From: Euglena gracilis
Lineage: Eukaryota
Direction of reading: 5' to 3'
Assembly (NCBI GenBank): GCA_039621445.1
Contig: CP154954.1
Span: 8,868,634-8,932,633 of the forward strand
Length of the DNA: 64,000 nt
Shown here: piece by piece, positions 8,258-64,000 of the stretch
How the letters are laid out: each line of letters opens with the position of its first letter
Position numbering within the stretch: position 1 is the first letter of the stretch
Notes under the pieces: generated by a model
Seen by the model: only the letters and a program-made list of their open reading frames with translations
The model's database searches: none
Told to the model about the DNA's origin: nothing
Made by a program: the position numbers and the translations under genes

Positions 8258-8545
8258 CAACCCCTGCTCTCCTCCCCTCCCCCATCTTTTTGCTCATTGC
8301 ATTTTTTAAAACAGGCTGTTTTCTCAACTTCTGCCTTTGCAGTTTTTTTTGAGTATTTTATGTTTTTGTATTTTTCCTCTTTGCGGTGTTTTTTTCTTAA
8401 AAAAGAAATGCGTGAAGCGCCTTTTCCAGTCTTTTCTCTGCAGAGATTGCTTGTTGAAAAAGTGATTTTGTATTGGCCAATGATGGTTCAGGGGAGAATG
8501 CAGCCTGCCCCCACCATCTATCTTTTTGTGCTCCTTCTCCTTCCT

Positions 8546-13670: not shown

Positions 13671-13933
13671 CAGGCTTCTTTTTAAGTCACCTGACCCCCC
13701 CCCCCAGGGGGAGGGGGGGTGGGTGGGTGGGTCCGGTGACCCCCCGGGGGGGGGGTCCCGCGCCGGAGGCGCTGGGTATACCTTTTCGGCGCAAAGCGCC
13801 GAAAATTTTTGAAAATTGCCTTTAACGGGCCCGATTTTGGGGGGGTCCCCCCCCCGGGGGGGTCCGGCGCCACCCTGGGTGGGTGGGGGGGACCCCAGCC
13901 CCCCCCCCCCGGGGGGTCTTAAAAAGAAGCCTG
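13671..13933. mobile_element. CAG..CTG MITE, 16-bp perfect TIR, 8-bp TSD
   Basis: GGTGGGCG|CAGGCTTCTTTTTAAG ... CTTAAAAAGAAGCCTG|GGTGGGTG (7/8). A shorter relative lies at 25682-25830 (AACCACAT/GTTCACAT). Confidence 0.82.
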
Positions 13934-14129
13934 GGTGGGTGGGTCCGGACCCCGCCTCCCCTGAGACTTTAAATAAAAAATCTCTGGTGCCCAAGTCCAC
14001 ACAAACACATGCAGACACGCACGCACGCACGCACACCCACACCCACACACAGGAGGACAGAAATCGTGCAAGTTGCGCAAAAATGTATGGTATTACCTGA
14101 AAAAGATTTCATTTTTTCTGTAGGGTCTG

Positions 14130-16399: not shown

Positions 16400-28167
<11,768 letters not shown>

Positions 28168-29988: not shown

Positions 29989-37209
<7,221 letters not shown>

Positions 37210-39211
37210 CAGCAAAAGTAGTCGCTGAAAGACAAACAGCCAAACACATAATACAAACGTAAAATACAAATATAATCAGAAGGGAACTTGAAATGCCACT
37301 AGCTCTTAGAATAATGAACAGGGCGATTATATTTGGTAATTTTATTGAAAGAAAGATGGACCATGCGCTTCGATGATGGGAGTTTACATTCACATCCAAA
37401 TTCAAATTCCCTGAAACAAAGCAAGTGTATGGATGCAAGTGCCTATTTTTTTTTTGCTCTGAAAGTTGAAATCCCTGCATTTTCTGTGCATATTGACCTC
37501 GGAAATGCAAAGTTTCTGATATTTTTGCCACCCCCCCCAAATAAATGACACCCTCCAAAAAATAAGACCCCCCAAAAATAACACCCCCCCCCCGGGCCCA
37601 TCGAGCAAAAATCCAAAATAAGACCCCAAATATAACACCCCCCTGACGGTGCAAAGCGCTGGGGAGGGTGAAAATTTCCCCTGAAATATTCCCCCCCCAC
37701 TTGTCCACCGACCATCCCCATGTATCTGCCACCCCCCCGGTTGGGGTTGCAGGTTGCTTTGAAATTTGGGTTGTTTTTGGCACCTAGTCGTACGACCACC
37801 CCCTGGTCGGGGGTCGTACCTCCCCCCCCCTTGTCCAAGCTCCACCCTTGTCTAAGCACCACCCCCCCCCGGTTCTTACCCATCTTTTTAAAGGTCATCG
37901 TCACGGGGAGGTTTATTTTGTGTGCATTTTTAAGGGAAGCTTCTCAAAAATTCCGAAATTTCTGCAGCTTCTGAGACCTGACTTGGTGAGGTATTGTTGA
38001 TTTCTGCATCCAAATGTGTGTAAGTTCAACAGTGGACCTCCAAAATAAGAGTAAATTTTCCTTTTTGGCGCGAAGCGCCGGATTTTAGCACCACCCCCCT
38101 GGTTCTTACCCATATTTTGGCAAAATAAGCACCCCCCCCCCCCGGTTCTTACCCATCTTTCCCGGTGCTTAGACAAGGGGGGAGGCGGGTTGGGGGGCGC
38201 ATAACCACCCCTAGTTGGGGGTTGTGAACCCGGTTGGTGGACAAGGGGGGGTCCGAAAAACCCAATTTCAGACACAAAAAAATGATGAAATTTCAAAGAT
38301 TTTGGTATTTTTGAAGTGCAAAAAAAAAACATGCTTAATGTATACCAATTTACACCCAACGCGAAGTGCCAAAGGAAATTTTTAGTGTTTTTGGGAAGTT
38401 GAAAAATGATGGTTTTTTATCGGCCCCTGGAGGTTTCCAGAAACGGACCTCAAAAATAAGACCCCGCCGTATTTTGGGGTGGGGTTAAGGGACAAGATTT
38501 TTCTTGCCTAAATGCCTCCCCGCCTTGGGCTTCAGAGCCGGCCAACGCCGGTCTGGGCGTCGATCAGGGTCGAGTTTTGAACAGTCGAAAATGCTTTTTT
38601 TTTTTACGCTTTGGATGGGCGAGGTTCCGAGGATTCCAAAAATAACTTTTCTCCTAAGTTTATTTTTTTGCCAAAATGACGATTCTTCGGCCATTTTTCC
38701 TGTGGTTTTTTGATGAATGTGGTGGGATGCGGAATTGGTTTACGCAAAAGGACGCCCTGGCTTTCACAGGTAAATTGATTTTCTATCAGAATGTCCCTGG
38801 AAATTGCCATTGCATACTCCACTTTTTTTTTGCTCATAAGTGTTGCACAGTGAAAATGACAAGTGCAACATTTGCGGCCAACCCTGCAACAACGCAAGTG
38901 TTTGCTAGCTTTCATTTGGTGTTCTCCTTTTTTTTTTATTTTTTTCAGTCCGTTTTCGATAAAAGTTCACAAGCCAGTATTTCGCTGATATGAGTTTTGG
39001 TGAGAAAGAAGTCAATGACCGTTCAAAGCATGCGCCCACTGCATAAGGAATCCCGGATGATGACGGAGAAGAGTCTAATATACATTACTCCGCCCACATT
39101 TTTTCTTGGTCCCCTGAAGCTGGGTGTGCTGTGAGGGGAGGTTTTACAGCGTCAGAGCTTCAGCAAGGAAGGCAGTAAGGGAGCCATAAAGGCACTTGCT
39201 TTTCCATTTCA

Positions 39212-40637
39212 GCGGAGGCCTTGGTGCATACCCTGCCCCACAACCAAAGTGGCGGAGTTTTTCTGAACCTGCTGGCTTGAATGCCAGCGCCTCCCTGTTT
39301 GGTGTTCCAACGCCACGTCCCACACCCACCCACCCACCCACCCCAACTTCACTGATGCTTCAGCCTGCCCCACAAGGTGCCCCGAGATACCTGCCAGGCA
39401 CCCGCCAAGAAACCCTTCAGGTCTGGCCAATGACGATGTACGCGGTATAGTTGTGACGATGTTGTGGCGATGCTGTGACGATGCTGTGACGATGTTGTGG
39501 CGATGCTGTGACGATGCTGTGACGACGTTGTGGCGATGCTGTGACGATGCTGTGACGACGTTGTGGCCACCAATGGCTGACGTTGTTTGCCGAACCGGAT
39601 TGCCGGTTAGGGAACGATCCCTGGAACGAGCGGCTACAGCGGCTTGGGAACCCAGGCACATGAGAGACCGCTCACAGGAGCGTGTGGCCCCAGCGCGTAC
39701 GTCAGATGTGCCACGCCTTGCTTGCCATTGGTGGACAGTTTGGGGCAGAGACGAGCACTCCAAGCAAACCCCATTCACAGCGCCACGACGCCAATTGTCT
39801 GAAGTTGCTTGGGTTGGCAAGGCGTGGGGGGGGGGGGGCAGGAGGAAAACGCAAACCGCGTTGTTTTGCGTTGTTCTTGCATTTCCTCGATTTTGGGCCA
39901 CGGCCATGTCCGTGTTCTTTCCCCTGGGGAGTCCCCTCAGGCTTCAGCGCAAGCTTGGTGGCAACAGAAAACCGCATTTACCATTTATTTAGGAAAGCGT
40001 CAAAACAGACGAGGAGAAACAGACGCCTGATTTGTCCAAGGTGGAAAAACAAGTGTCGCTCAGCCCCAAGGGCTGGCTGAACCTGCCTCGGCCTGGCCCG
40101 GGGGGGAGTCGGTACCTACCCCCCCCCCGGGAAACTGTCATGCCCGAGAACCGGTCAGGGTCCCGCCCGGGAAACTGTCAGGGTCCCCGGTACTGGCCAA
40201 CCTGTCAGGTGACAGTTTCCCGGGGGGGGGGGTAGGTAGGCCACCGCAAAGGTCGGCCCCCCTCTCCCCCCCACCCTCCTCCCCGCAGCGTATGCCGCCG
40301 GCGGCCCCGCCATCGCGATGGCCTACCCCCCGCCCCCCGGCGCCGGCCCCGCCCTCCCGCCTCCCCCCGGCCCCGCCGGCCTGGCCCTGCCCGCCGTGAG
40401 CGGCCTCCTCGGCGGCCGCCTGCCGAGCGGGCCGCCCTTCCCCTCCGTGGCCAGGGCTGTTCGGGAATCCCCGAAACCCTATTTGGCTGGAGGGGAGTCC
40501 GACCCCCCCCCCAACTAGGCCTTCCCGTATTTATATTTTTTCATTTATTATTTTTATCTTTTATATTTTTTTATTTTATTAATTTTAATGAATGAATATT
40601 TGTTAAAAATAAAATATATATTTATGTATTTATGTAT

Positions 40638-40696
<59 letters not shown>

Positions 40697-43600
40697 TGTT
40701 TTTCTTTGCGGGGTGCTGTGGTGGGGGGGGGTTGGCTCACCCCTCCTCCCACCTCCCGGGTGGGGGGGGGTCAACACTCCCACCAGGCCTTCCCATACAG
40801 CCCTGTCCTTGGTGGGAGGAGCCGGAGGCGTACCCCCGGCGTCGGTCCCCCCCGCGGGGAAGTTTGGGCCAGGCCGTTTCCCCCTGTCGATGCGCTGCCT
40901 CACTCCTCCCTGAGGTTGTGGCCAGGGTTCATGTCAGGAGTGTCTGTTGCCAAAAAGGTTTTATACTACAAAAAAATGCATTTTAAAACCCGTTGGCGCA
41001 CAGTGTCTGCTTTTTGAATGCAGTTAACGTTGTGCAAGGGGAGTAATTGCACATCGTCGTGTAACGAAACCAGGCAGGACGTGAGACTCACAATACAATG
41101 CTGACCCCCGGGCAGTATTTGGATTCCCCACAAATCCGGCACTTTGTGCCAGATTTTGAGCATTATTGCCAAAAAAAACGTCTGAAATTACACCATTTTA
41201 GAGAGAAAATTTTTGGCCAGGCGCTTCGCATTGGACCGAAAATTACTCATTCAGGTCATGCCTGAGATACACCTACCGGGGGGGGGGGATTTCGTGCCAG
41301 AGAAATTTTGCGGCGACAAATTTCGCGGGATTCCTTAAAAATGTCCGGAAATATTTCGCAGTATTTTTTTCTGTGAAGCAAAAAAAGGGAAGCCTTGAGC
41401 ACCTGAAAGGGAATATATGGACAAAAATTTCGCGGGATTCCTTAAAAATATCCGGAAATATTTCGCGGGATTTGCTTCTGCGAAATTTGTCCGTGCAAAT
41501 TTTCTCTAGGGCAAAATTCCCCCCCCCCCGGTATGAATTTGGATTTAATTCTCAAAAAAATTCAAGTGGGTAAAAAGTCATCAGTATTTTTCTGTTCCCC
41601 CAGGCTTCACTTGAAAACAATGTTCTGATGCCCAGAGCACAACCCCCCTGAATACCTGAGGCCAGAAATTGTCGGCGGCAAATCCACCCGCGGAGTGGAT
41701 TAAAACAAGTGAATTAGATTTTATTGTCAGGCTTCTGTGCCTGACCAATATGGTCCAGTTGAAAATATCTGAGGTGACAGGCATTGGAAACGGTGTGCTA
41801 GCCATAGGCTCACTTATCAATTGTGTGAGCCCCCCCCCCCTGGGGTTCGAGAGTGGGTGAACGAGTTGGAGCCACTGAACCCCCCCCCCCGGGGGGAATG
41901 GGTCAGATTTTGGCCTGGCCAAAGGCCAGGCCGTAAAAATTTTCGAGGATTTTCGGCCGATTTTAGCTGGATTTTGGGTGGGTGGGTCGGTGGGTGGTTG
42001 ACGCTTTCAGAAACCAAACAAACTGCGACGAATTGGTCCCATTGGAGGTGGAATCCACCACACAATGTATCTAATTTTGGCCGACGTGCAGAGTGGGTTG
42101 GGGAGGGCTAGGACCATGGATTCGCCAAGTGACCCCCAGGGGGGCACTTTTCCCCAGGGGCCAAACCCACCCACCCACATTTTTCGACGACCCCCCCCCA
42201 CGGGGGCCCCCCTCCCCCCCCCAAATTTAAAGCACCCTGTGGTCAGCCCCAAAGCCAATCTCGCAGCGATACCGTACGCTTTCTCTTCGTCTAGTTTCCA
42301 ATTTGCTCTGCAACGGAGCGCATGGGGGACCTACCTACCCCCGCCCCCGGGAAATGTTCACCTTGCTTTGGGGTGTGCTGGCTACTTTCGGTAGAAAGTT
42401 GTCCCTAGGAAAACCCCCAGGCCCAGCATTTGTTGTACGGGCTGGCTTAACTTCCCAGGGGGGGGGGGAGGGAGCAGGGAGGAACACAAATGCGTTTTTT
42501 TTGCATCTTTTTTGTGTTTTTTGATTTTGGAAAAATTTGTGTTTTTTGCGTTCATTTGCGGTTTTTTTTTGCGGATGTTTTTTTTTTGTGTCGCTTTTTG
42601 AGGGGTTGGCAGAGACGGCCTGCTGCGGGCTGCCGTTCAGCACGATGCCCAGCCTGGCTGGCCTGGCGCCGCGCCCCGACTCACAGCCACCACACAGGCC
42701 TGTGCAGAATGGAAAGACTGCTTTCAGACTGAGAATTTTGGCGGTCACGGCTGTTCTGGTTCAAGGGGCGTCGGGACAAATGCGTGTTGCAGATAATTCA
42801 AAAATATTTACGAACCTGATGCTGTATTTCTTTTTGGAGACAACAGTTTGGCTTGTTCCAGTTTTGTTCTGCATTTCCAATTCCAGGCTGTTAACTTTCT
42901 GCGCAGGGTATGATTTACGATGCAAATTTGCCAGAATTTTCTCTTTTTTCTTGTTGCGCATGTGAAGGACCCATCTCGCCCCCCACTTTTGGTAACAGAT
43001 TTGGTTGGTTAGTCCCAGCGATCCGTTTTGGATGGCCAACCCTTGACACAGCATCCCCAAAGAGTTGAACGTTGAGAAGTGTAGCACAATGTTGGCCCGA
43101 TACAATCCCCAAGTTAATCACGAATCCCATCATATTACACACTGTCATACCCCCCCCCTTGTCCAAGACGCACCGCGTCGTTGACACACCCCTGTGTCAA
43201 CGGCACATTCCCTGAACATTGGCGGATGCCTGAATCTGTCTGTCTGTCTGAGAGCCTTGCCGGAACCATAGACCCTCACAGTTTTTATCCTCACACTGGC
43301 TGGCACCGTTCCAACGGGCCTGCACAGGGCATTTCAATCAAGTTTGGCATTGCGACCCTGGCAACCTTTCGCACTGACAAGTCCGTGGCGGTGACATCGC
43401 AGTCGACAGTCTCCCTGCCGGGAAACCCAGACCACTGCCGGGTTGCCTGGTCCAGGGACAAAAATATTCCCGGGCCCGGTCTCCCCCACCCCTGTGTGTG
43501 TGTGTGTCCAATGAACACCCCGGTCACCTAAACACCCGTGTCCGGACTGCAACGTTTGCCACCAACCTGTTCACTGGACACAGGGGGGGGGGCAGGGGGT

Positions 43601-44767
43601 CGGAACGACCGGTCACGGCAAAGCGCACAGACGCGTGGCAGTTTTGGAGCACGTGTCATGGGGCCGTCTTTCCGGCCCGCCAGCGGATCGGCGGGCCGTC
43701 CGGACCCCACGCGCCTGAGCCCCATCTGCCGGGCTGGGGGCCCCCCTGCCGCCCATCCCGGCGCTGCCGACGCGGCCGCCGGTGCTGGACGCCCTCATCA
43801 CGCCCCCCTCCGGGCCGGCGTTGACCGCCTCCACACCGGAGAAGGCGGCTGCCAACGGCTCCGCCGTTGGGGTTGCCGCCGGGCTGCGGGGTCTATCGTG
43901 GTTGAAGAAACTGACGGAAAGAGAAATAATGCAGACATACATGAATATGCATAGATGTGCATACAGATATATAATTTTACAGTTTTGTTATTATGCATAT
44001 TATGCAGGTGTATATTATATTCATGCATTTTTAATACATTTTTTTACACGCACACACAGACAGAATACATATTTTCAAACCATGGTTTGCCCAAGGCCTG
44101 GCCGATAAGGTGTGAACCCGCTCTGCTCCGCTCGAGAATGCATTTTGAGTTTGAGAAAAAGTCTGAGAAAGTCTGAGAAAACCCACCCACAGCCCCCTTT
44201 GTTTATATTTCATCAAATGCCTGGCAGGGCAGAAAAGCGCAGAAAGCTCAAAAACGGTTGTTGTCATGATGTGTTGAGAGTTTAAATTTTCGCCAAAGTG
44301 AGAAAAGCGCCGTGTGAAATCAAGTACATACGCAACGCATACAAACCATGAACGGCCTCACAATCCGCCCGCCGCATCAAAGCACACTGGCCCAAATCCG
44401 GCCACACTGCAGCAGCCCCGGCCCCCTGACCGGCGCGCCTTCCCCTCCCCCGCCGGGCTCCCCAACGGCACGGGCCGCCACTCGCCCTCCAGCCCCCAGG
44501 CGTGGACGACCCCCGGCGCGAATGGCCCCGGCCCCAGCGGCAACGGCGGGCTCTCCTTCCTGTCGTGCGGCGTCACCCCCAGCCCCGGTGTGTGCGGCAG
44601 GGCTGTGGCAAACGCTGGGTATTTGCTGGGGTTGTGGTGCTTTTTTACGCGTTTTTTTTGTTGCTTTTTTTTTCGGGGTGTTGGTTGCGTCCTCCCCCGC
44701 CCCCAACCAGAATGCTGTGTTTTCTGCTTTGGCGTTGTCACACGCGCGCAAACACACAGGCACACAG

Positions 44768-44839
<72 letters not shown>

Positions 44840-45029
44840 ACACACAAAGCGTCTCACTCTCAGGCCGAGCCGCCAAACTCAGAATATCAACCCCTCTTTT
44901 ATTGGGAATGTGTACGAATTTTCAACTTTCAACTTTTCACCTGTTCCATCACTTTCACCAAAATTTTTAATGCCCATGTATTCATCAAAGTTGATATTAC
45001 ACACACACACACAAATATACATATATATG

Positions 45030-45062
<33 letters not shown>

Positions 45063-48000
45063 GTATATATATGTATATATATGTATATATAATGACATAT
45101 TATATATTATATATGTATTATATATGTATAAAATATATTGATATTTTATGACCTCCCACAAGTGTTTTGAGGGGTTTGAAAAAAAAGATGTAATGACATT
45201 TGCCTCACCAATTTGGGGAGGTTTCTGTGGCTTTCGCCGAATCCAGGGGATGAGCCAGCTGTCCAGCCGACAGATTTCCCATCTTGTCATCGTGAACTTC
45301 ACACACCGTCCCACTCCATGTCTCCTCCTTCACCTCCCCCCCCCCCCGCAGTGGACTCCACCGGCTATTCGCTCCCGAGCTCCGGCCCCGAGGCGGGCGC
45401 CGCGGCCGTCCAGGCGGCGGTGCTGCAGTCGCGGCTCGCCGCGGCGGAGCAGCAGCTGGGCCAGCGCGAGGCCACCGTGGCAGAGCTGCAGCAGAGGCTG
45501 GCCGCAGCGGACCGGGCGGCCGCGGAGGTGCCCCCCCCCCAAAACCATCCGCCGGTTTTTGTTGTTATACTCTGGTATTGTTTTGTTAATACACGTATTT
45601 TTGTTTTCTGCGCTGGTATTATTATTCTACTGATTTATTATTCTTATATTATTCTTATTCTTGTTATTCTCTGTTATTATTCTATATTTTTTTTGTAATC
45701 CAGGTATCAGCAACGAATTCAAAAGGGTTTATCTCTGTGGGTGAATGTTCAGTGCTGGGAATTTGTTTCCCCCATTGTCACCCAGCCGAAATTGTTGCTT
45801 TGGGTCAATAGTTGCGAGCTGTTCATCGTGTAAATTCATTTCCTGGCTGGAAATATGGCTTGACTTGTGAGGGACAACTTCTCAGCGGGTGGGGGGGCAT
45901 GTCTGATGAAGGAACAACAACTGGGTAGTGTTATGTTTGGGATCATTGATGGACAACTCCAGGGGTTTCTGCAGTTTTTCGTGGGTCTTCTTCCTTGAAT
46001 TTTTTTCAGCCAAAGTTGGCCCCCAAAAAAATTCTTTCCCCAAACAGCACAAAAGTTTTTCTTTCGCATAGTGGCTTCATGTTGAGATTTGATGTGGCCT
46101 TTTTGTGATGAAGTTCCATCAGAGTCGGAATCAGAGTGCGGACCATTCTGGAGTTTGGACTGTTTCCGGGTATTTTTAATCCAGCCCCAGGAGGTCAGGT
46201 GCATTTCAAAGCCACAAGAGGTGGGGAGGCTTCTCATGTTTGCCTTTTTTGGTGAAGAAAGGCAGTCCCGCATTGCGCATCCTTCCTTCTGTCCTCCGCA
46301 TCTGTCCTCGCATTCGACTTACCCTCATCCTGCCCACTGCCTCTGCGTGCGCCGACCAACCCAAGGCACACCCAAACCCACAGCCGGGGAATGAATTCAG
46401 AGATGGTTGTGAATGGGGGGGCAGAGCAGGGTGCTAAATGGGAATTGGTTTTGTACAGGGGAAGGAGAAGGGGGGGGGGGTAGTCTTTCTGTTCCGCGGC
46501 ACATGGCTCCAGAGAAGTTAGGTGTTTTTTGTTTTTTTATCGATTTGTTGGAAAAAAAAAACTCCTGAAAGCACCATTTTGGGGCATTTTTGGGGGGGCG
46601 TTCGGGAAAAATCTCCGGCATGTTGCGCCGGGTTTCCCCCGGGGGGGAGGAGGGAGGTCGACTCTACCCCTCCCCCCCCCCCCGATGAGAAAGGGGAGTC
46701 CAGACCACCCCCCTCCCCCCCCCCTGTCATTTCACTTTCCTGTCATGTCATTTAATTCCTTCGGGGGGGCTGGTTTTCTGTTGGTCTGCTCCCAGGCGGC
46801 GGAGCTGCGGCGCAAGCTGGCGGAGGCGGAGCAGCAGTGCAGCCACCTGCAGGGGGAGCTGGCCCAGAGCCGCATGTCCACCACCGCGTCCAACAGCCGG
46901 GGCTGGCCCGATGCGGCAGTCTGCGGCTTGCGTGGTGCCCGGGAGACCCAGGTGGGGTGGTCCCGGGCCCGAAAAAAAAATATATTTTTATATTTTAATT
47001 TAAAAAATTAAAAAGCACAACTCTGAAATCCCCACCGGGTCAGCAAACTATATGTTCGAAAAAAACTTACCCAGAAATCCTGCAGGTCAGCCCATTTTGG
47101 ATCCATTTCCCAATCAGGCTTGTGCTTAGTCGGGTGCCTACCCCACGGGGGGGGGGGTGCTAGGGGCAGGCACCCCATAGCACCCGATCCGACCCCCCCC
47201 CGGGGGGGGGGGTAGGGTTTTGGGGGGTGCCTGCCCCTAGCAGGCACCCCCCTCCGACCCCGGCGCCGAAGGCGCCGGGGGCCCAGAAAAGGCCATTTTC
47301 AATGAAACTTTTCTGGGTCCGGCCCGGACCCCTATCCCCCCCCCGGGGGGGGGTGTGCCTGCTAGGGGCAGGCACCCTATAGCACCCACCCCCACCCTCC
47401 CCCCCCCGGTTGGTAAGCACAAGCATGTTTCCAACCATTGGCCATTCAGCTCCCTCCAGGTCAAATAAATCTGGTACCGAATCAGTCTGATTCTGCTCGG
47501 CACCGGGGTGAATTCGTCGGAGGGGATCTGTTTGTGGGTTCTCTTTGTGGATCCCCACCAGTAGGAATTTTATCTCAAAATTGTCCGTTTCGGTTGCCCG
47601 TGTAGGGAAAGGTACAGCTTGAACTCACCCACGTGTCATCTTTCACCCCGTTGGGGAGGGCGATTCTTATCGTGCATTAGTCCCCAACCATTCGCCAGGA
47701 GAACCATTCGCGCGTGTCGCACAGTTGTATTTCTATATTACAAAAGGGCACAACGCCTGCGACAGACTCGGATGGTTCTTACGGTTTCAATTCTGATTGT
47801 GTGAATTTGGCTGATGCCTCTGAAACTTTGGAATTGCCTTTATGGTGTCATAATCATGTTCTCTTTTCCAATGTGGCGGTTGAGGAGTTTGCTTAGAGGG
47901 ATTTTGGCATTGCCTTTGTTTAAAGAGAGATTTATTGAATTAAAGGAAAAGTGCATTCGTTTTGTGGTAACGGCCTGGCTTCCTTCCCACGTTGCAGTGA

Positions 48001-51000: not shown

Positions 51001-54000
51001 GTTGGGGTTTTTTTGTGTGCGCCAAGCGCTTTGCGCCAGGCCAAACAATTGAATCAACGGATTTTGTCACACCGCTGTTTCAGTGTGGAGGAAGGTGTCC
51101 CCCAGCCCTGTGACACCTGCTCAGACATCCCCCCCTTTGCTTTTACATCAGCATGTCAGACCCTATTCCCTTCTTCTCAAGGGGAGTATAAATGCCTGAA
51201 GCAGTCTATTTTTTTGTTTTTTTTTTGGTGCAAATCGCCTGAAACAAGTTGAACGACAAAGTGTTGGTTCCAGGTCCCAGGCATCAGATTGGAGCGTGTG
51301 ATTTCATTGCCGACAGATGTTATTCTGTCGCACAGAAGATCTGTCAATCTATCTTATTTAGCAGTTTAACAGTTTAACATTTATTACTTTTACTTATTTA
51401 TGCCGACCGTACGAGGGATTTTCATGCCCGAGAATTTGTCACAGTCCTGCCCGGGAAAATGTCAGAGTATCATCCAGCACCTCCCAATATTTCAGAGTCA
51501 AAGTCTTTGGAAATGCCCTGCTACTGCGCAACCCAGGAAACTCTCTCCCGCCCAGGAGAAAACAGCCAGAATTTTGGTTCTGCCCCCCCCCCCATACCTA
51601 CAGTCTCCAAGGTTTCCCGCTGCTGCCGACCTGTCAGGGGGGGGGTCTAAGATTTCTTATCTGTTGCCTGTCCATCAGTTTGTTTCATCGGAATGGGGGT
51701 GGGCGCCATTAAAATGGGAGCACAACGACACAGATTCAAAACAGTGCAGCATTTCAAACACAGGAAAAGACCCACGGGGTGCTGGTTCGCCCACATCAAC
51801 AGTGGACCCGTGCTTTCCGCCCCCCAAAAGGGGGCCCTGCCTACGGTGGAGGACGCACCAGAGCACGACCCGGACAACCTGCCATACCTGATGGAGGAGG
51901 ACTGCATCGTGATGCGGCGGCGGCAGGCCAGCGACCAGGCGGGTGTGACGTTGCGGCCGACCTCTCTATGGGGGCAGAGCTATGGCTGTACGGGAATCCC
52001 CGCAGCAGGGAGGGTGGGGGGGGGGTCCAACCCCCCCCCCCACCCCTTCCTTGAGGGCACCGATTTTTAGGTCAACATTTTCTGCCTTCGGCGCCAAAGG
52101 AATTTTATTTGGGCGGTGCCAGGGTGGGTGGGGGGGAGGGTCGGCCCACCCACCCACCCCCACCTCCCGGGTGGGAGGGTCGACCCCCCCCACCAGTATT
52201 TCCCGTAGAGCCCTGCACCCCCCCTGGCTGTCACTATGGGCCCTTGCAGCTGACTTTTTTTGTCATGTTGGAAAGTCCCCCCCAGGGCCCTCCCTCTGGA
52301 AGTCCAGAAAAGTTCAGCTGAGTGGGCGAATTTCCTCCTGTCCCCGCTGGACCATATTATTTTTTGAGGCAGAAATTTTTTTAAAAAAATTGAGGGGTTC
52401 AAAAAATTTGAACCCCTTTCTCAGGTGTTATTTTCCAGAATTTTGATTTGTATAAAAAGAAAAACTGCAAGGCATCGTTTTGTTGCATGATGGGAGTTTT
52501 CCCCAAGGTGGTGATTTTTTACAAGTCTGTTCCTGACAAAATGTGCACAGTCTGGACTTTGGCAGGGAATTTCTCCTCCAGGGAACCCACAGGGAAGTGC
52601 TTTCTTGGGCACCCCGACAGAGACCCCTCCCCCGGGATGGTCGACCCCAGCCTGCCGGCAACGGTCCTGCTGCGGCTCCCGCTCCAGCCCCAGCCAACAC
52701 CATCACCCCGCAGTCCAGCGTGGGGGACGCCGCATCGATGGAGCAGCCGGGCAGGGTGTGGTGGGATGAAGTGTGAAGAGGGCGTTCAAAGTCAATTCCA
52801 CCGGCGCACAGATGTGTGCACAGTTGGGTGCTGAAAGCAGGGATTACCTCAGTTTCGTGCCACAGAAAATCATGAAAAATCACGAAAAATAGCGAAGTCA
52901 CAAAAGAAATCACAAAAATCGCGAAAAGTCACAAAAAGATCACGAAAAGTCGCGAAAAGTCACGAAAAGATCGCGAAAAGTCGCGAAAAAAACACGAAGA
53001 ATCAGGAATGGCGACATGGGGTCTTCAGCACGAAACTGAGGGAATCCCTGCTGAAAGGCAAACTTTGGCCCAGGTTTCCAACACGGACGGGGGAGGGATT
53101 CCATTTCTGTCACCTGCCGTGCGAACTGCATTCCTTCGACCGCTGCTTCTTGTTTCTGCACCCGCGGCGTAAAGGCGACGTGGAACCCTCGACAGTGTTT
53201 GTCGTGTCTGCGTCGCCGCCTAAAAACCCCAGCTCATGGAGTGGACAGATCCGGTGCATTAACACACACGGTCTGTCACAACCATTGGGCGAAAAGCGTC
53301 CAACCCCCCCACTTGCAACACGCTCACAAACACGTTCCTTATAAGGACCGCTGGGGCTGGCTTACCAAACGACTTAGAAGAATTAAGCCTCGGCGCCGAA
53401 GGCGCTTGGAGGCAGGCACCAACTGAGTCGTGGAGGGGGGGTCTGAGTCAGGCTTGTGCTTAGTCGGGTGCCCACCCCACAGGGGGGGGGGGTGCTAGGG
53501 GCAGGCACCCCATAGCACCCCATCTGACCCCCCCCCCGGGACCGACCGGGGGCATACATCTCTCTAAGGTTCTGCGAACCCCCCCCGGGGGGGGGGGGGG
53601 GGCGGCTGCAGCCAGCCCCGACCTATTTGGACCCAGCCCAGCCGCAGCCGCCCCCTCCCCGGGGGGGGGGGGGAGTGCTGCTAGCCCTAGCTAGCCAGCC
53701 CCTTTTTTGGGGGTCCACCCCAAAATTTTTCGGCGCAAAGCGCCGAAATTTTTTGAAAAACTGTGTTCTAAAGTGGCCAAAAATGGGGTTTGGGGGGCGT
53801 TTGGGGCATTTTGGGGGGGTTTCAGATGCATCATTTTTTCAAAACTGTGTTTTGCAGGTCATTTTTGGGCATTTTTCCGATTTCAGTCCAGCTCGCCCCG
53901 GTTCGGGTCCAGCCCGCCCCCCCCGGGGGGGGGGGGGGCGGGCTAGCCCAGCAACCCCCCGGGGTCCTTAAAGAGATGTATGACCGGGGGGGGGGGTGCT

Positions 54001-56494
54001 ATAGGGTGCCTGCCCCTAGCAGGCACACACCTCCTGGGGGGGGGGGTTAGGGGGAGACCCAGAAATTTTTCATTGAAAATGGCCTTTTCCGGCCCCCGGT
54101 GCCGTCGGCGCCGGGGTCGGAGGGGGGGTGCCTGCTATGGGCAGGCACCCCCAACAACCCTACCCCCCAAGCACAAGCCTGTTCTGGGTCGTTCTGGGGT
54201 TTGGGGAATGACCAAAAAATGAGTTTTCATGATCTCTGAAATTGAAGAATTTTCACATTTTCTATCCACAGCATTCAAATTTGGTCACATCCAAACGAGG
54301 GGGGGGGGGGGCTGGCACCCCCAAAATAATGCCTTTGGGGTCACAACTTGGCCAACGCTCATTCGGTGCGTTCGCAAATGGCTGGTGAACCTGAAATCTT
54401 TGGTGTGCACAAGAATTTTCTTTGGTGGACAAGAATGAAAAGGGGTCCAACTGGCTGCCAGCTGGATCTGGAGGGTACACAGAAAAATGGGGGAAACGCC
54501 CGAATGCAGCTGGGTTGGCATTTTTCAGCCGGAGAAGGGAAAACTCCAAAAAAGAGTCCTCAAAGAAAAAACACTAATTGGGGCCTTTTCGGACTGCTCC
54601 CTCACCCAAAAAGCAGTTCGCACCAGAATTTTTTTTAAACCTCAGCCCAGGTGCGCCGGGCTACCCCAACTTCGCCGTGCCCCAAGGTGACGAGGAATGA
54701 GTGACACTCATGTTGTAGTCATCACCAGGGGACAACCTAAGGACCCGGGAGGGGGGGGGTCCAGCCAGCCAGCTGGAAAAAGGAGCTGCCCCCAAGAGGG
54801 GTGGGTCCCACCAGCTCCTGGGCTGGGCCCGACTCGTTTCCGGAAACTGGCGCCAAATCCCAAATCCAGCTGGGTTCACCAGGGATTTTTTTTAGACCTG
54901 GGGGTGGTCGCCCCATTTTAGGGTGGGGTCAATTTTGGGTCGATTTCGGCGCCGAATTTAGGGCCAAAGTCCCGCCTCCAGCAGGGGACCCACAAGGCTC
55001 TTGCGGGTCCCACCCCAGGGGGGGGGGGGTTGCGGCGGACCCGCCCACCCTGCTCCCCTCTCCCCCGGGGGTCCAACATTTTAAAAATCACCTTAGCAAA
55101 TTGGCAAAGTTGAAAGTACGCACTCGGGGAGTTGGGAGTCAAATGGAGGTATTGTGGCTGCTCTGGTCTCTATTTCCTTTAGTTTTTTCATAATTTACAT
55201 GTTTTAAATGTATATTTTTGGCAAGTCGATCATTTTCTGGGGGAGTTCTGGGCCACACTGGGAGCCCAGGGGTCAACCCCTAAATACTCGCCAATTTTTG
55301 CAGAAATTTCCCATATGCGCGCGATTGGGTGCAGATGGCACGTGCACGAGGGGTGCGCCTCCACCGCAAAGGTGCGCTCGGTCGGACAGTGTGATGTGTG
55401 CACATCATTCCCTCCTGGGGGCTTCGAACGCTGGCGGCCACGTCCGCCATGTTTTTCAGGGGGGTGAGGGTTCTTTGTCACAAGCCTTTAGTACGGAAAC
55501 GGCCGTCCAGGGACATATGAAAGAGATGCTGTTTTTGGATTTTGTTTTGACCAGGGATCCTGCTCATGCCCCGTTTCCGCTTCCCTGGGATTGTTTATCC
55601 TCTATGGGGACCTGAAGCAGGAACTGTGTTTGATGAGTGTGATCCGGAAAATCAAGGCCGCAAAGAAACCCAAAAAGCAGCACAAGTTATGAAAAAAAAA
55701 AACGTGATCTGCAGAGCCAACTTTCGCCCAACTCTGGCCCATTTTTTGGAACCCCCCAAGTGGGAAAAAAAACCTCCGCAACCGTCCCACCTGTAACCCT
55801 TATTTTTTTCTGCCCATGACAATTGCTTTCGGGCCGTTTTCCCCTGACCTTTTGCGTGGTTGTTGGTGTTTGCTTTGGCGTTGGCGTCAGGGTTGGCGTC
55901 GGCGTTGGCGTCGGTGGTGGTGTGCGTCCTTTGACCAGGGTTCGATATAAGGAGGGCGTACATGGTTTAGGTGGGGGGGTGTCCCCCCCACCCCCCCCCC
56001 CCCCCGCCTCCTGGCCCCCAGGGGGGGGGTCCGGACAACCCCCCCCCCCCACCTGCAAGGGGGGTCCGGACCGACCCTCGGGGGGCACCCGGGACCCCCC
56101 CCCCAAAAAGGGTCAATTTTTTCCTCCAGCGCTTCGCGCCGAAATTTTTTTGCATTTTTGGCCAATTTTTGCCCAAAAAGTGCCCAAAATGGCACTTTTG
56201 GTCGTTTTGGGGGGTCAAATTTTTTTCGGCCCGGCGCTTTGCGCCGGGCCGAAAATCGGTCACCCTGACCGCGCCACTGTTTAGGTGGGGGGGGGGGTGT
56301 CCCCCCCACTCCCCCCCCCCCCTGGCCCGCAGGGGGGGGTCCGGACCACCCCCCCCCTCCTCTCCTTATATCGAACCCTGCCTTTGACCCTTGGGCGGAC
56401 AGTTTGGCCCGGCGCCCTGCAGCCGAGGGAGGTTCACTGGGCGGGGCTCTGGGGCGCCTTCAAGGACAAGGTGTTCCCCCCGCCCGGCGAGTAA
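39212..56494 (+). CDS. Multi-exon protein with Pro-rich N-terminal half, central coiled coil and short aromatic C-terminal tail
   Basis: Exons include ~39212-39397, 39611-39655, 40289-40448, 40811-~40860, ~42614-42685, ~43700-43870, ~44425-44587, 45352-45527 (LQSRLAAAEQQLGQREATVAELQQRL), 46796-~46898 (AAELRRKLAEAEQQCSHLQGELAQSR), ~49260-49313, ~49570-49668 (VMERLNDVLMEREEVANEFRRYK), 50570-50658, 51845-51938, 52621-~52755 and terminal ~56403-56494 (REVHWAGLWGAFKDKVFPPPGE*). Several junctions are unresolved. Confidence 0.6.
39451..39566. repeat. 11-bp tandem repeat (T/C)TGTG(A/G)CGATG with 33-bp higher-order period
   Basis: About 10 units. Confidence 0.88.
40115..40236. mobile_element. Second, inverted copy of the ~120-bp GGGAAACTGTCA MITE
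   Basis: Near reverse complement of 24856-24979; TA on both sides. Confidence 0.8.
40449..40810 (+). mobile_element. Nonconventional intron that is a MITE copy (CAGGGCTGT family)
   Basis: TIR CAGGGCTGTTCGGGAA / TTCCCATACAGCCCTG (14/16) at 40452-40805, flanked by TCCGTGGC and TCCTTGGT (6/8). The same left-end sequence GGGAATCCCCGAAACCC occurs in the copy at 330-476. Confidence 0.75.
47115..47427. mobile_element. MITE, CAGGCTTGTGCTT family
   Basis: TTCCCAAT|CAGGCTTGTGCTTA ... TAAGCACAAGCATG|TTTCCAAC (6/8). Confidence 0.78.
49750..49815 (+). pseudogene. tRNA-Val(CAC)-like pseudogene or tRNA-derived SINE head, in an intron
   Basis: GGTAGC D-arm start, CTCACAC anticodon loop followed by GCGGGAGG, and B-box-like GGGTTTGAATCCC; the acceptor and D stems are broken. 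Confidence 0.4.
52865..53000. repeat. 10-bp tandem repeat TC(A/G)CGAAAA(G/A)
   Basis: Degenerate tandem copies. Confidence 0.8.
53449..54181. mobile_element. MITE, CAGGCTTGTGCTT family, interrupted by a nested MITE
   Basis: GTCTGAGT|CAGGCTTGTGCTT ... AAGCACAAGCCTG|TTCTGGGT (6/8). Confidence 0.8.
53553..53982. mobile_element. Nested MITE (CATACATCTCT family) with perfect 8-bp TSD
   Basis: ACCGGGGG|CATACATCTCTCTAAGG ... CCTTAAAGAGATGTATG|ACCGGGGG. Confidence 0.88.
55936..56380. mobile_element. MITE, perfect 19-bp TIR and perfect 8-bp TSD
   Basis: CCTTTGAC|CAGGGTTCGATATAAGGAG ... CTCCTTATATCGAACCCTG|CCTTTGAC; an older copy lies at 56863-57209. Confidence 0.9.
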
Positions 56495-59400
56495 CGCTCT
56501 CCCCTCTCACTGATCCGCCGATCCGGTCCGCCCCTCAACACAATGAGCCTAGCCTCTGTCAGGCATCGCTGACCCTAGCGCAAACCCCCCTCTGCGTGAG
56601 AGCAGAGGTGGAGACCAACCTGCCTGACCTGCTCCATTTCCTTACCTTCTTTGATTGTGCTTGCCTGGCTGGGGAACTTGCTGCCAGACGCAACAGGCGC
56701 CAATTATCTGACAGCAAAGTGAGTCATTAACTGTGGGGCAATTGTGGACGACCAGGGGTGGGGGTCCCTACACGTACGGGTGACTGTACAGCAAGCGTGG
56801 TGTAACCCAGGGGGAATTGCCTCGTTTTTTTTTCCATAGAGAATTCTGGTAAACGTCCCCAGCAGGATCGACATAAGGAGAGTATATGGGTTAGAGGAGG
56901 GGGTGTCCATCCCCCCCCACTGCCAAGGGGGTCCAGACCGACCCGGGGGTATCTGGGACCCCAAAAGAGGTCAATTTTTTTCTTCCGGCGCTGCACCGAA
57001 AATTTTGCGTTTTTTTTTGGGCAAATTTCTGCCCAAAGGTGCACAAAATGACATTTTTGGCCGATTGGGGGGGCAATGTTTTTTTCGGCCTGGCGCTTTG
57101 GTAACCCAGACCGCGCCATTGTACAGGAGCGAGGAGGGTGCCTCCCACCCCTACTGGATTGGAGGAGGGGGTCTGGCCACCCCCCCACCTGCCTTTATAT
57201 CGAACCCTGTCCCCAGTGCGAACTTGATGAAAGCAAAGCAAAGCAAAGCAACTCAACTTTGATTTTTTTGGTGAAAAGCGTCGGCTTCAGTTCAAACGCC
57301 CCGCCAACGCGATTGTGGTTGTTGGGCACCGGCGAACCACTCGGCAGGGAAGTCATCCCCCTTTTTCTGGAAGATGCTTTCCCGACCCCCCAAACAGGGT
57401 TTTTTCCAAAAAGGTTGATGACCAGGGGAGCAGGGTCCTGCCCCCCCCCCCCCAATGGCCTGAGTGGGCACACAGGGGGCTGTGAAACGCCGAAAGTTTT
57501 TGGGACCCCCTCCCAATGGCGAGTCCCCTCTGAGCCCCCGGGTCCACCACCCCCAGAGGGCATCGGGGTGGGTGCCGACCTCTCCAGAGTCTTAGAACAG
57601 CCTCTCCCATCTCCCGGGGGGGGGGGGTTCAATGAAATGGTGCAACGGTGCCTGGGGGGGGATTTTGCTGCGGGGGTCCGCCCAGACGACCACCTCAGCG
57701 GACAGCCAGGTCCAGCAACCCTCTCCTGTTCTGCCCTCGTCCTGGAGGCCGGTGGCGGGGCAGTCGGTCCAGCCTCCCCTTCGCCTTTTTTTCTTGAGTT
57801 TCTCATACTGCCCAAAAGTTTGCGTGCTTCCATTTTAGTCATTGCTAGATTTGTTGCCGACTGTTGCTGCGCCAGAAATCCAAACCCTGGATTTTTTTCA
57901 AAGAAATGGATCGGATCAACCTTATCGGTGGTTCGTTTGGGCAAACAAACCAAAACCTCAGCCCCAAGCCAATGCCAAAAAAAAAACAATGCCAAAACCA
58001 ACGCCAGCGCCAACTCCAACACCCACACCCACACCACCGATGCCAACACCTGGGATAGCCATTCCATCCAGAGCAAAAATGCATTCCACGGCACCTTGAC
58101 CTCAGTTTGAAGGGAACGTTGACGAGAGATTTTCGGATTTTTGTTGTTTGATTTGTATTCCCATTCTTCAACGTTTGTCATGATGGAAAATCACACATGA
58201 TAGTGGTGACCTGGTGGGTGCGTATCATCATGGAGTTGTCTCACCTTGATGCGAAGGCAGTCATCCTCGTTTTATGCCTCATGTGCTGGCTCACCTAGCC
58301 CCCGTTGTCTGCCCACCTTTTTTCGACGTTTTTTCATGGAAAAGGTCACGGGTACCCGTAAAGCATCAGCGGGGTGGAATATTCCCAGAACTATTTCGGA
58401 ACACCCCGGGGCCCACAAATTTCCCGTGATTTTTTTTCGGGGCAAAATCAGAAATATCGGGCCAAATCGGGTCGTTTTTCGGGTGGGCAGGCAACGCGGG
58501 CTAGGTCTGAGTCCCAACACCCTCGTGTTCTTCTGTTGGCGACTTGAAATCGGGCTGCCTCTTTATTTGGGCAGAACAACACCAGAATTGTAGTGTCGTG
58601 AGTTTGCACATCCCACCACAAAGGGGAAGTCGGTCCCGAGGGGCATCACCCCTCCCTGGGGATTTTTCAGGATACACCCCTTCCCCTTTTGCCTCAGCCA
58701 CCTGCATGGGTGCTTGCGTTGCTGTGCCCTTTCTTTGCGGATTGTCCAACGCCCTAATCAGATCGCCAGCCACATGTGGGTAGACCAGTGTGGTGCGATG
58801 GTGTAAGCCTGCCCCAAATAATATACCCCCCTCTCCAGGGGTTTCAGCTGTCTAAATTATTAGATTATGTCTAAATTAAATAAATGTACCCCCTTTGCCG
58901 CACCCCAGATATCAAAATATCCTCAATTCCCGTCCAAAAACAATATATTTTTGAAAAAATGTCTGGTACCGAAAAATACGGCAGTATTTACCTGAAATAA
59001 ATTGTCAAAAAAGTTTAAAAATCAGAAATTATGTAAAGATGTCATTGTAAGTGGATCCAATGAATAAACGCCTAAAATAGTATCCCTCCTTGGCCCCCAA
59101 CTTCGGATGTCCAAATAATATTCCCCCGGGTGAATTATTTGGGGACACCTGCTGTTGGCGAATGGAGGTGGCATAAGTGATGTGTGGCACCGTGAGGTTC
59201 GCCAGACATGACCTCCAAGCTGACGGTGATAGATTATGTTTGGTGCAGTCTGGACAAGAACGGGAGGCAAAACTACCATCAAAGTTTTCCCATATTTTTT
59301 GTAAGTTTTGTCTTCCGTAATCTCGTCCGTCCGCCCTGTGTCATCTTTCACTGGCCTTCAAGCCACAGGTGGTCCACACCAAAATTATCACCAAAACACC

Positions 59401-61468: not shown

Positions 61469-64000
61469 TTAGACGGCCGGGAATGCATTTTTCATTTTTG
61501 GTGTTTTTTTGCGCACCTGCGCATTCTTTTGAGACCAAGTGTGTCGCCACCACTTGACGGGGCGGCCGACCCGTCAAGTGAAACCCCTGGTACCAAAATG
61601 GGTACCACCACCTTCGATCCCTGGGTTTTTTCCTGGGCAAACCGACTTTTTTCGTTTTGAAAATGACGGTTTAGCACCTCCGCGGACCGAGGGAAAACCC
61701 CCGTCTGCCGAAGTAGGTGCGACACAAAACGCTGTTTCACGAGGACGAACCCTCGTCAGGTGAAGGCGTTGTACCTGTGGCTGCCCCCCTGTTTTGTGGA
61801 CCCCAGTGAATGCGCAGGTGCGCATTCACCCCCCTCTCCGTCCCGGCCTTTTCCTGAAGTGTTGGACGGTTATTGTGGCTCCCAGGGGTGGTTGTGGGAA
61901 GCGGGCACTGTGGTCTATACGGTTAGAGTGGATGGGAGGTTCTGTGCCCTGTGCTGGAAGCAGGGCACGAGGGGGCGATGGTGAATGTTTGTTGTGTACG
62001 TGTACTCTGCATTCAGAGAGTGGCGGGGGGGGTGTTTAAATCCACTCCAGATGTGTGTTGGGGAGGGCTCGTCACCCTCCTCAGGCTGCCTGCTGTTTGC
62101 CATTCCACACGGTACACTGCACCCCTCTGTGACACATGCAGGCACAGCATCCCTCCAGTGGCGCATGCCGTCCGCTCCCCATGTGCCTTCTCATAGGCAC
62201 CACGGCACCTCACCATGTGGGACCACCTGTGTTTGGGTCTGACGTTTGGGATGGGGTGCTTGGTATGGAAGGGGGGGGGCTGGCTTGCACCCCTTTCCTG
62301 CGTGTCACTGGTTTTTAAAGCTATGGAGCGGAGCCCCGCCTCAAGCCTTTCTGCCACAGACCATACCCTCCAGAACAGCCCTCACAAACAACATAAAATG
62401 GCTCCTCTCCGAGGTTGCATGAGGCACAAGAATGCGCACGTGCGCACTCTTGAGGCCATTCCTTCGCTGGCTGGCTGTGATTCTATCTGCAGGAGAGCAG
62501 GAGGGGAGCAGCGCTGGGCATCCACAAGAGTGCGCACCTGCGCATTCCGTGAGGGGGAGTGCGCAGGTGCGCATTCTCTGTGTGCTGTGTCTCGCACCCC
62601 TGAACCCAGTGCCAGCACAGCATTGTGGTAGGGCTACCCCCATGGTGCACTGCTGGCCTTTTTGTTAGCAATTTCAGAGGCATCTCATTGCACAGGAGGA
62701 TGCCGCCAGAGTAGGGTGTACGTCTCCTGGGCTGTGCCTCTACCTTGTGTGCTGAGTTGTTTGGCATGGCTCTCTATAGCAACCTCCTACCAGGGTGCTG
62801 TAAGGGGAGACACAAGAAGGGAATGCGCATATGCGCATTCACCCCAATGTGCCATGTTTGACTGCAGCCATTGCGGATGGGGTGTGTGGAGAAGGTGTGT
62901 GCACATGTGCTTTCCCTGGTCTTCACAGCCGCCAGGGGTTGTGTAGTTTGCAGTGTTGGTGTGTCGACTCTGAGTTCATGATAAAAAAGGGTTCTGTGTG
63001 GTGGGTGACGTTTATTGCCAGCAAGGCCACAGGTGGTGGTCCTCGTCTGCCGTGTTTCGCTCCAGGGCTGTCTCGTCCTCGGACACCATTGGATCCTCCC
63101 AGGGAGGTCTACACTTCAGCTGTGTGGTTTCAAACCCAGGCCACTCGGGGGGGAGTTGGCGTGGGTGGTGGCAGCCCACCTGGGAGTGAAAATATTCGAC
63201 GGTGTGGCTGTCATTCAAAGAAAGGCACAGGACGATTTTTTGCGCATGTGCGCATTCACCAGCTTTTCACTCATGCCATGAAGGACTGCTGACCGCATTT
63301 GGGAATTAGGGTGCCCGTCACCGAGGAACTTCCTGGGGCATTGAAGTCCCTTTCTCATCCGTTTTCCCTTGGTATGACACAGTGGAATACACAGAAAAAG
63401 CAGAACGGAAAAACTTACTTGGTTTATCGGCAAGTTTTTGTTGTGATGTTTTTGTCCCTGTCTCACAATCTCAAGGGCCTGGAGAAATTTTGGGGTAAGG
63501 ACTGACCAGTGGTGTTCGCTTCTTTGAGTCCATCTGGATTGTAAATTAATTCTGTGTTTACAGACCGTTTTTGGGGAATGATGCCGAAGGTGGTGACAGG
63601 CGTGTTTCGCTCTCGAGGTGCCAACCCCATGAGCACTGTGTGTGGTACCAGACACAACCCCCTGCGTTGACCCTAATTGTGGGGCACAGTGCTTCTTGCA
63701 CCTCGTACCGCAGCCCAACGTAAGGTTGTTCAGTGCGACCATTGGCTGTGTGCTGCCATGCACGCTCTGGGGCGTGGGGTTGGACAACGCTGGCACCAAC
63801 CGGCCCACCACCTCCGCTGGGTGGGGGACCGTTGCCTGTGTGTTGTTACGTGCTCCACACGTTCATGAGAGCAACGCAGGCTGGGCTGGGCACTGGACTG
63901 CAGCGGGTGAAGTGGAATGCGCAGGTGCGCATTCTGATTTGCTCAATGATTTGCACTGCAGGGGGCAGTTCCCCTATCACTGAAGGACATGGATTCGTGC

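Follow-up and report, generated by a model that had tools for sequence, protein, structure and literature searches.

Where the nonconventional introns of euglenids come from, and why they are cut three nucleotides (nt) ahead of one conserved end and five nt beyond the other, are two questions that meet in a gene for a proline-rich protein of Euglena gracilis. The gene lies in a 64,000-nt stretch of the forward strand (NCBI GenBank assembly GCA_039621445.1, contig CP154954.1, positions 8,868,634 to 8,932,633), hereafter called the window, in whose coordinates all positions are given. Its intron 1 (40449-40810) is verified by RNA and has ends that double as the tips of a repeat family, which allows the origin of such introns and their asymmetric 3/5 register to be addressed together. 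Our analyses suggest that intron 1 probably derives from a MITE (miniature inverted-repeat transposable element) and that the 3/5 register removes this element together with one equivalent of an 8-bp target-site duplication. The general idea of a “MITE-like” origin thus becomes a quantitative prediction, namely a peak of flank identity at exactly 8 nt that decays with the age of the family.

Intron 1 is spliced from RNA and fits the euglenid splicing code

The RNA-supported part of the gene comprises the following features.

40344-40448, plus strand: upstream coding exon, with transcript contig support from 40344 and an open frame.
40449-40810, plus strand: nonconventional intron 1, 362 nt, in the register fitting N3-CAG...CTG-N5|R (equivalent starts 40448-40451).
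40811-40866, plus strand: internal exon of 56 nt (40810-40865 in the leftmost register), delimited by RNA joints.
40867-42627, plus strand: nonconventional intron 2, 1761 nt, GGC-CAGGCCGT...ACGGCCTG-CTGCG|G, supported by RNA reads and a contig.
42692-43723, plus strand: nonconventional intron 3, 1032 nt, ACA-CAG...CTG-AGCCCC|A, with 3+6 geometry.
43863-44427, plus strand: nonconventional intron 4, 565 nt, with GC..CT borders, RNA-supported.
44588-45351, plus strand: conventional intron 5, GT...AG with a C-rich tract; the contig continues at 45352.

The region 37200-44700 was compared with the raw RNA runs X21 and X24, the transcript contigs X15 and the DNA run X1, one of 14 listed DNA runs. 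The joint that skips the 362 nt of intron 1 (40447 to 40810, three letters ambiguous) occurs in one X15 contig and one X21 read (no X24 read). The same contig, 1742 nt long at a depth of 54.1, carries the three following joints as well: 40865 to 42627 (1761 nt skipped, four letters ambiguous; six X21 reads and one X24 read), 42689 to 43722 (1032 nt, three letters; six X21 reads and two X24 reads) and 43862 to 44428 (565 nt, one letter; one read in each run). Its coordinates 1219-1742 equal the exact sum of the five exon pieces, with nothing between the joined sides, and the five exons together keep a single frame open over 193 amino acids (aa) of proline-rich sequence. None of the four joints was found in the DNA run X1 (0 contigs). 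The X21 reads spanning joints all have their first mate on the minus strand, as fits plus-strand RNA if the library is a standard stranded one. Intron 1 is therefore a real, nonconventional intron that is spliced from RNA. The initial annotation had predicted its junction at 40448/40811 between exonic flanks, and the transcripts use precisely this junction, the RNA joint and the open frame placing both flanks in exons; among the four equivalent registers that the RNA supports, it alone agrees with the code in the literature. The picture of the gene in that annotation needs one correction: the exon behind intron 1, of 56 nt, is internal and not terminal, being followed by another nonconventional intron, and the stop codon 40911-40913 is unused.

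For the nonconventional introns of euglenids, Nomura et al. (2025) established by knock-in the code 5'-N3CDG-/-CH'GN5-6|R, in which the 5' spacer is fixed at 3 nt, the 3' spacer is optimal at 5 nt with 6 tolerated, and the first base of the downstream exon is a purine; only CDG/CH'G, their pairing and the spacer lengths were required, the spacers being otherwise “random” (PMC12501133). Intron 1 fits this code as GGC-CAG...CTG-TCCTT|G, and its borders are not GT/AG in any of the four registers (TG..CT in the leftmost, GG..TT in that of the code). Intron 2 fits too, and intron 3 does so with 3+6 spacing.

Several observations concern the rest of the gene. The upstream exon probably starts near 40288, judging from a C-rich tract that ends there in CAG. 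Introns 1 and 2 both start with GGC-CAGG (the boundary 8-mers of intron 2 lying at 40862-40869 and 42623-42630), and the junction repeat GGGC of intron 2 stops exactly at the edge of its terminal repeat. Beyond the five exons, the next 30 letters of the X15 contig match 45352 onward, which is why intron 5 is placed at 44588-45351 with GT...AG borders. The mix of intron types, together with the C-rich polypyrimidine tract, suggests nuclear DNA of the euglenid type. A search of the protein encoded by exon 6 (58 aa) against longer proteins scored none of 1797 candidates, and no Rfam family matched in 37000-46500.

The ends of intron 1 are those of an inverted-repeat element

From 40444 to 40813 the sequence reads in the order TCCGTGGC / CAGGGCTGTTCGGGAA ... 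TTCCCATACAGCCCTG / TCCTTGGT, that is, an inverted-repeat element between two similar 8-mers:

40444-40451, plus strand: left 8-mer TCCGTGGC, putative left target-site duplication; 5 nt are kept in the mRNA and 3 nt (GGC) form the N3 spacer.
40452-40467, plus strand: left terminal inverted repeat CAGGGCTGTTCGGGAA; likeness to the copy at 330 extends to 40480.
40530-40706, plus strand: AT-rich core, which contains (TATT)~20 at 40615-40697, from the repeat analysis.
40790-40805, plus strand: right terminal inverted repeat TTCCCATACAGCCCTG, complementary to the left one at 14/16.
40806-40813, plus strand: right 8-mer TCCTTGGT, putative right target-site duplication; TCCTT is the N5 spacer and 3 nt are kept in the mRNA.

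The two 16-mer tips are complementary at 14 of 16 positions and the flanking 8-mers are identical at six of eight; a repeat search joined tips and flanks into inverted arms of 27 nt (40441-40467 and 40790-40816) that are 78% complementary. Between the tips lie a subterminal region with G and C runs, the AT-rich core and, just before this core, an incomplete second copy of the right subterminal region, 40511-40529 resembling 40779-40797. At 354 nt, non-coding, about half AT-rich simple sequence and with 16-nt tips, the element has the size and structure of a MITE. The predicted minimum-free-energy fold of the RNA pairs both terminal repeats (-141.7 kcal/mol, z -7.6, with 0 of 100 shuffles as low), placing 40452-40460 against 40797-40805 and 40463-40467 against 40790-40794 in a helix that extends into the flanks. 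Across this predicted helix, cutting one strand 3 nt beyond the end and the other 5 nt beyond it would amount to a 2-nt stagger; an RNase III-type enzyme is among the options raised in the literature (PMC12621601).

The tips of intron 1 recur in the window. Allowing up to three mismatches, the 16-mer tip occurs nine times compared with 2.58 +/- 1.50 in shuffled sequence, and none of 100 shuffles reached nine. The left end matches 336-359 over 24 nt at 95.8% (E 2e-5 within the window) and 51984-52002 over 19 nt at 94.7%, and these matches belong to two sister copies:

330-476, plus strand: sister copy of 147 nt; flanks CCCCTCCC / CACCACCC, 6/8 identical, in C-rich low-complexity sequence.
51981-52215, plus strand: sister copy of 235 nt; degenerate left tip TATGG (not CAGGG), a foreign insert, and flanks 2/8 identical.

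All three copies have in common the right tip TTCC[C/T][A/G]TA[C/G]AGCCCTG, which reads TTCCTGTACAGCCCTG at 330-476 and TTCCCGTAGAGCCCTG at 51981-52215. The three lie within 64 kb and are diverged. The initial annotation had placed the same family at these positions, and similar ends do occur at both. Because 24 nt are shared with 336-359 at about 96%, the common ends exceed what the splicing code needs; and because the splice sites are found at exactly 3 and 5 nt beyond the ends of the family, it is the element that defines the intron rather than an element sitting inside an older one. Word depth in the DNA run reached 490 and 2000 in two bins of intron 1, compared with 25-30 in single-copy bins, which indicates repeated content, although these values do not represent a copy number.

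A pairing search with the 9-nt tip motif across the window yielded no additional complete copies. A solitary exact copy of the 9-nt left tip, CAGGGCTGT, stands at 44598-44606, where it starts 11 nt into intron 5, the conventional one; no right tip to go with it was recovered, and this solo tip may be due to chance. Metagenome matches to the left tip (26 loci) were set aside as chance, none having CAGG before it or family sequence after it.

Putative 8-bp duplications at the introns and at other elements

The assumed duplication length k was scanned from 2 to 14 at each element. Random 8-mer pairs of the same geometry agree on average at 2.0 of 8 positions, with probabilities of 0.009 for at least 6/8 and 0.037 for at least 5/8. 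At intron 1, k = 8 was best (6/8, P about 0.005-0.009), and the identity that the initial annotation had noted beside the inverted repeat was recovered by computation; taken alone, this flank identity is weak support for a duplication and suggestive only. Intron 2, whose tips are perfectly complementary over 8 bp, has flanking 8-mers GTTTGGGC / CTGCGGGC that are identical at 5/8, again with k = 8 as the best length. The sister copy at 330-476 also had its best k at 8 (6/8), and that at 51981-52215 had no best k.

A first scan of the window for inverted repeats returned 715 pairs, mostly from tandem or palindromic arrays at 1811-3700, around 29700 and at 61500-63900, and 72 remained once repeat ends taking part in many pairs had been filtered out. 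Pairs starting with CAG and matching at 12/14 or better numbered 31 in the window versus a shuffle mean of 5.7 and maximum of 12. Among these 31, five independent loci had at least 5/8 identity at k = 8 where about 1.1 were expected (binomial P 0.005; shifted-flank control 0.0055): 55936-56380 (8/8), 13671-13933 (7/8), 53449-54181 (6/8), the intron 1 element at 40452-40805 (6/8) and 25682-25830 (5/8). At other values of k the matches were redundant or of low complexity, except for 7/7 at 52838-53050. If the count is restricted to CAGG-start pairs with repeats that do not continue further outward, five of nine show the 8-bp signal. The elements with the clearest flanks are as follows.

55928-56388, no strand assigned: CAGGG-tip element of 445 nt (55936-56380), tips CAGGGTTCGATATAAGGAG matching at 19/20, perfect duplication CCTTTGAC on both sides.
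53545-53990, no strand assigned: CATAC-tip element of 430 nt (53553-53982), perfect duplication ACCGGGGG in unique sequence, nested in 53449-54181.
34827-35257, no strand assigned: CATAC-tip sister (34835-35249), a different perfect duplication ATATACAT, interrupting a 23-nt tandem array.
13663-13941, no strand assigned: element with tip CAGGCTTCTTTTTAAG (13671-13933), flanks GGTGGGCG / GGTGGGTG at 7/8; its sister 25682-25830 has 5/8.
53441-54189, no strand assigned: element with tip CAGGCTTGTGCTTAG (53449-54181), flanks GTCTGAGT / TTCTGGGT at 6/8, the identity peaking sharply at k = 8.

The CAGGG-tip element at 55936-56380 lies in unique sequence and scores 8/8 at k = 8 and at most 4 elsewhere. 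The two CATAC sisters are homologous from repeat tip to repeat tip, their homology beginning and ending there; their CAT does not fit the CDG of the splicing code, and the tandem-array setting weakens the case for a duplication at 34835-35249. CA-tipped elements of the window other than intron 1 and its sister copies clearly show a duplication of fixed length directly outside the terminal repeats, perfect in three cases and then 7/8, 6/8 and 5/8. CA/CAGG-tipped elements that make 8-bp duplications thus exist in this genome. This window-scale version of the excess identity expected at the 8-nt register supports a transposon reading. Since CAGG/CA-tipped elements with 8-bp duplications occur in the window, intron 1 would belong to a class of MITEs that give rise to introns.

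Some of these elements have features of their own. That at 55936-56380 is apparently young and, by the published code, would be spliceable in both orientations, a purine following the 5-nt spacer on each strand; a solo right tip matching it lies at about 57196-57209. The 430-nt CATAC element is a nested insertion within the 733-nt element at 53449-54181, whose tips read CAGGCTTG. The element at 52838-53050 is 213 nt long, with tips CAGGGATTACC and a 10-nt tandem array inside (52866-53008).

Other repeats in the window

An element that is palindromic and about 113-125 nt long, its arms being perfect over 20 nt (a C-run plus GGGAAACTGT), occurs at 24854-24978 and at 40113-40238, the latter just upstream of the exon. 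Word depth in the DNA run reached about 530,000 at 40113-40238 versus about 28 for single-copy sequence, and many RNA and DNA reads continue from it into unrelated sequence; for these reasons we regard it as an extremely abundant dispersed repeat. A 43-nt palindromic unit, CCTCGAACG...CGTTCGAGG, forms arrays at 1907-2172 (6.2 copies) and 3288-3685 (9.2 copies), and in the region 61500-63940 a palindromic motif, TGCGCA..TGCGCATTC, recurs in many dispersed copies that pair in all combinations.

A proposed origin with scarless excision

The origin that we consider probable for intron 1 would begin with a non-coding element of small size, bounded by terminal inverted repeats and with tips that read CAGGGCTGT.CGGGAA, which would have inserted into a coding exon of the gene for the proline-rich protein and duplicated an 8-bp target, ancestrally about TCCKTGGY. 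In the pre-mRNA, the terminal repeats would pair (CAGGGCUGU/ACAGCCCUG and GGGAA/UUCCC) and the predicted helix would draw the junctions together, upon which the nonconventional splicing machinery would cut 3 nt before CAG and 5 nt after CTG. The exons on either side are joined in RNA. Of the left copy, 5 nt would then stay in the mRNA, and of the right copy 3 nt, together exactly one equivalent of the target, and since 3+5 makes up the length of the 8-bp duplication, reading frame and sequence would be restored, which would account for a harmless spread of such introns. Perfect excision of any given insertion would also call for a purine at position 6 of the duplication (PMC12501133). In the initial annotation, the 3/5 cut was held to remove the element plus exactly one copy of an 8-bp duplication. 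The junction and the geometry agree with this, but the duplication at intron 1 is imperfect and the sister copies are not cleanly flanked.

If such elements were generally treated in this way, the cut geometry of the splicing reaction would be matched to the 8-bp (to 9-bp) duplication of resident CAGG-tipped transposons, nonconventional introns would largely be exon-inserted MITEs, and their splicing machinery would act as an eraser of transposons at the RNA level. We advance this generalization tentatively and lean slightly against it. Were it true, every copy of such an element that lands in an exon would be removed scarlessly from the mRNA, and the machinery would have co-evolved with, or been recruited for, one class of transposons, nonconventional introns being the majority of euglenid introns.

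A number of results weigh against the derivation of intron 1 from a MITE or against its extension to other introns. Its junction is spanned by a single raw read and, apart from the mismatches in the 6/8 duplication, the flanks admit a second alignment at k = 11 (7/11, P about 0.01) in locally low-complexity sequence. Within the same gene, the flanks of intron 3, with its 3+6 geometry, agree at 2/8 for k = 8, 4/9 for k = 9 and 6/10 for k = 10 with no clear best k, and intron 4 has neither CDG at +4..+6 nor CH'G at -8..-6. The family itself is loosely defined: mean column identity of the copies is 51% and the shared similarity is short, and the 9-nt tip is weakly enriched in the window (23 occurrences versus 13.8 +/- 4.2, the shuffle maximum being 23 as well). 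Of the sister copies, 330-476 reaches its 6/8 only in C-rich sequence where neighbouring registers score 5-6, 51981-52215 scores 2/8 at k = 8 beside its degenerate left tip, and both share CACC.CCC outside the right tip, so that their true ends may lie further out. Four of the nine CAGG-start pairs with non-extendable repeats do not have the 8-bp signal (8312-8507, 1/8; 11795-13293, 2/8; 41071-41264, 4/8; 55936-57209, 1/8), and the direct repeat flanking 52838-53050, CTGAAAG, has 7 nt and not 8. No empty site, that is, no joined form, appeared in the DNA run X1, a weak test with one of the 14 listed runs, and no transposase was recognized, no Pfam family being present in the 10 long open reading frames that were scanned out of 26 listed with 220 aa or more. 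Finally, direct repeats flank 84.4% of all introns in E. agilis, conventional ones included (PMC12501133), and since conventional introns are flanked in this way too, junction repeats by themselves are not specific to transposons.

This last point, together with the unclean sister copies and the alternative alignment at k = 11, also speaks for an ordinary history, in which intron 1 would be an old nonconventional intron, its 6/8 identity a product of chance or of selection for a Y|R junction and for helix extension into the flanks, and its likeness to 330-476 and 51981-52215 a result of constraints on intron ends or of later repeat exchange. A pyrimidine|purine preference at junctions has indeed been published (PMC11282704), and the flanks of intron 1 are partly complementary (CC..GG), the helix entering the exons in the predicted fold. 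We nonetheless consider this history unlikely. The 24 nt shared at 96% go beyond what the knock-in experiments required of introns with “random” spacers (PMC12501133); a repeat landing in an older intron would not be expected to have its ends at precisely 3 and 5 nt to either splice site; and the perfect 8-bp duplications at other CAGG/CA-tipped elements are non-palindromic, as direct duplication and not helix selection would have it. Repair of a double-strand break, in which short ends are duplicated and filler DNA is caught between them with no transposase involved, is how the 8-nt repeats of a gapC intron were interpreted by their authors, who cited a high break-rejoining activity in euglenids (PMC4770533). 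For intron 1 it appears very unlikely, as it predicts neither a fixed length of 8 nt, nor terminal inverted repeats starting with CAGG, nor sister elements with different perfect 8-bp duplications. Still further from being plausible is a spread through RNA, whereby circular intron RNAs would reverse-splice into new sites and be copied back into DNA, the copies carrying their own N3 and N5 and making no target duplication: full-length circular RNAs from nonconventional introns have been reported (cited in PMC11282704 and PMC12621601) and introns 1 and 2 have the same N3 spacer, GGC, yet their N5 spacers differ (TCCTT and CTGCG), the sister copies have other N3 and N5, and the CATAC family has perfect 8-bp duplications although its tips are unfit for the splicing code.

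A different kind of alternative keeps the transposon origin of intron 1 and its excision as described, and concerns only the transposase that mobilized the element. The hAT, Merlin and P superfamilies all make 8-bp duplications. The end rule of hAT elements given in the initial annotation would fit the CAGGG tips, which makes hAT a candidate. A Merlin or P-like enzyme instead of hAT is possible, if somewhat unlikely. Merlin is the only superfamily with 8-bp duplications documented in E. gracilis in the available text of PMC8101967, which describes two families with a conserved DDE motif; its 8- or 9-bp duplications would parallel the N5-6 tolerance of the splicing code, as 3+5 and 3+6 (PMC8101967), and a literature search for a Euglena hAT transposase led only to this same article. 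Against Merlin, its repeats have a conserved terminal 5'-GG (PMC8101967), whereas the elements described here start with CA.

Comparison with known systems

The introns studied by Nomura et al. resemble intron 1 in that their borders are not GT/AG, CAG stands at +4..+6 with CTG at -8..-6, the ends pair, the spacers measure 3 and 5 nt, the next exon starts with a purine and the junction can slide across a short direct repeat; intron 1 differs in that its ends double as the tips of a repeat family with further copies in the window. In that study, how nonconventional introns arose is called “unclear” and MITE-like elements are only a possibility (PMC12501133). A MITE-like origin had been proposed, and junction repeats noted, by Milanowski et al. 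in 2014, when, according to the same paper, no transposable elements had been identified in euglenid genomes (PMC3935182). A close published case is the newly gained intron 4 that gapC carries in strain ACOI 323 of E. agilis, which has 8-nt direct repeats at its junctions and was read as a product of break repair (Milanowski et al. 2016; PMC4770533). Like intron 1, it is a nonconventional intron with junction repeats in the 8-nt register, there over the full 8 nt and after a recent gain; unlike it, the gapC intron is polymorphic between strains and has no reported repeat family, whereas at intron 1 the repeat has decayed to 6/8 and a family, as well as other elements with 8-bp duplications, are visible. 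It provides independent published support for the 8-nt register (PMC4770533). A 2024 review speaks of the CAG/CTG ends as terminal inverted repeats and of the repeats at the junctions as target-site duplications, and in its available portions mentions neither hAT nor 8 bp (PMC11282704). Our literature search, with supplements outside its scope, yielded no paper in which the sum 3+5 is equated with the length of the duplication, or in which 8-bp duplications or hAT are tied to euglenid introns. What appears to be new here is the explicit link 3+5=8; its ingredients (the MITE idea, the repeats resembling target-site duplications, the 8-nt repeat of gapC and the N3/N5 code) were already published, and the proposal is largely anticipated in pieces.

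Among transposons, the hAT, Merlin and P superfamilies resemble the elements of the window in their 8-bp duplications and short terminal inverted repeats, and differ in that no transposase is linked to the latter, whose tips are CA and not the GG of Merlin. Among introns, a parallel exists with introners, MITE-like DNA transposons known from Micromonas, Aureococcus, dinoflagellates and others, which, as is proposed here for intron 1, are short non-autonomous elements with terminal repeats and a target duplication that insert into exons and are silently removed from RNA together with one equivalent of the duplication (PMC11282704). Introners, however, depend on the spliceosome and on GT/AG-type sites that come from the element itself or from its duplication, the latter measuring 3 nt in Micromonas (PMC11282704). 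Intron 1 has no GT/AG borders; a stem of its terminal repeats would guide excision at fixed distances of 3 and 5 nt, and the putative duplication has 8 bp. If our reading is true, intron gain driven by transposons would extend to a splicing system that works without GT/AG sites.

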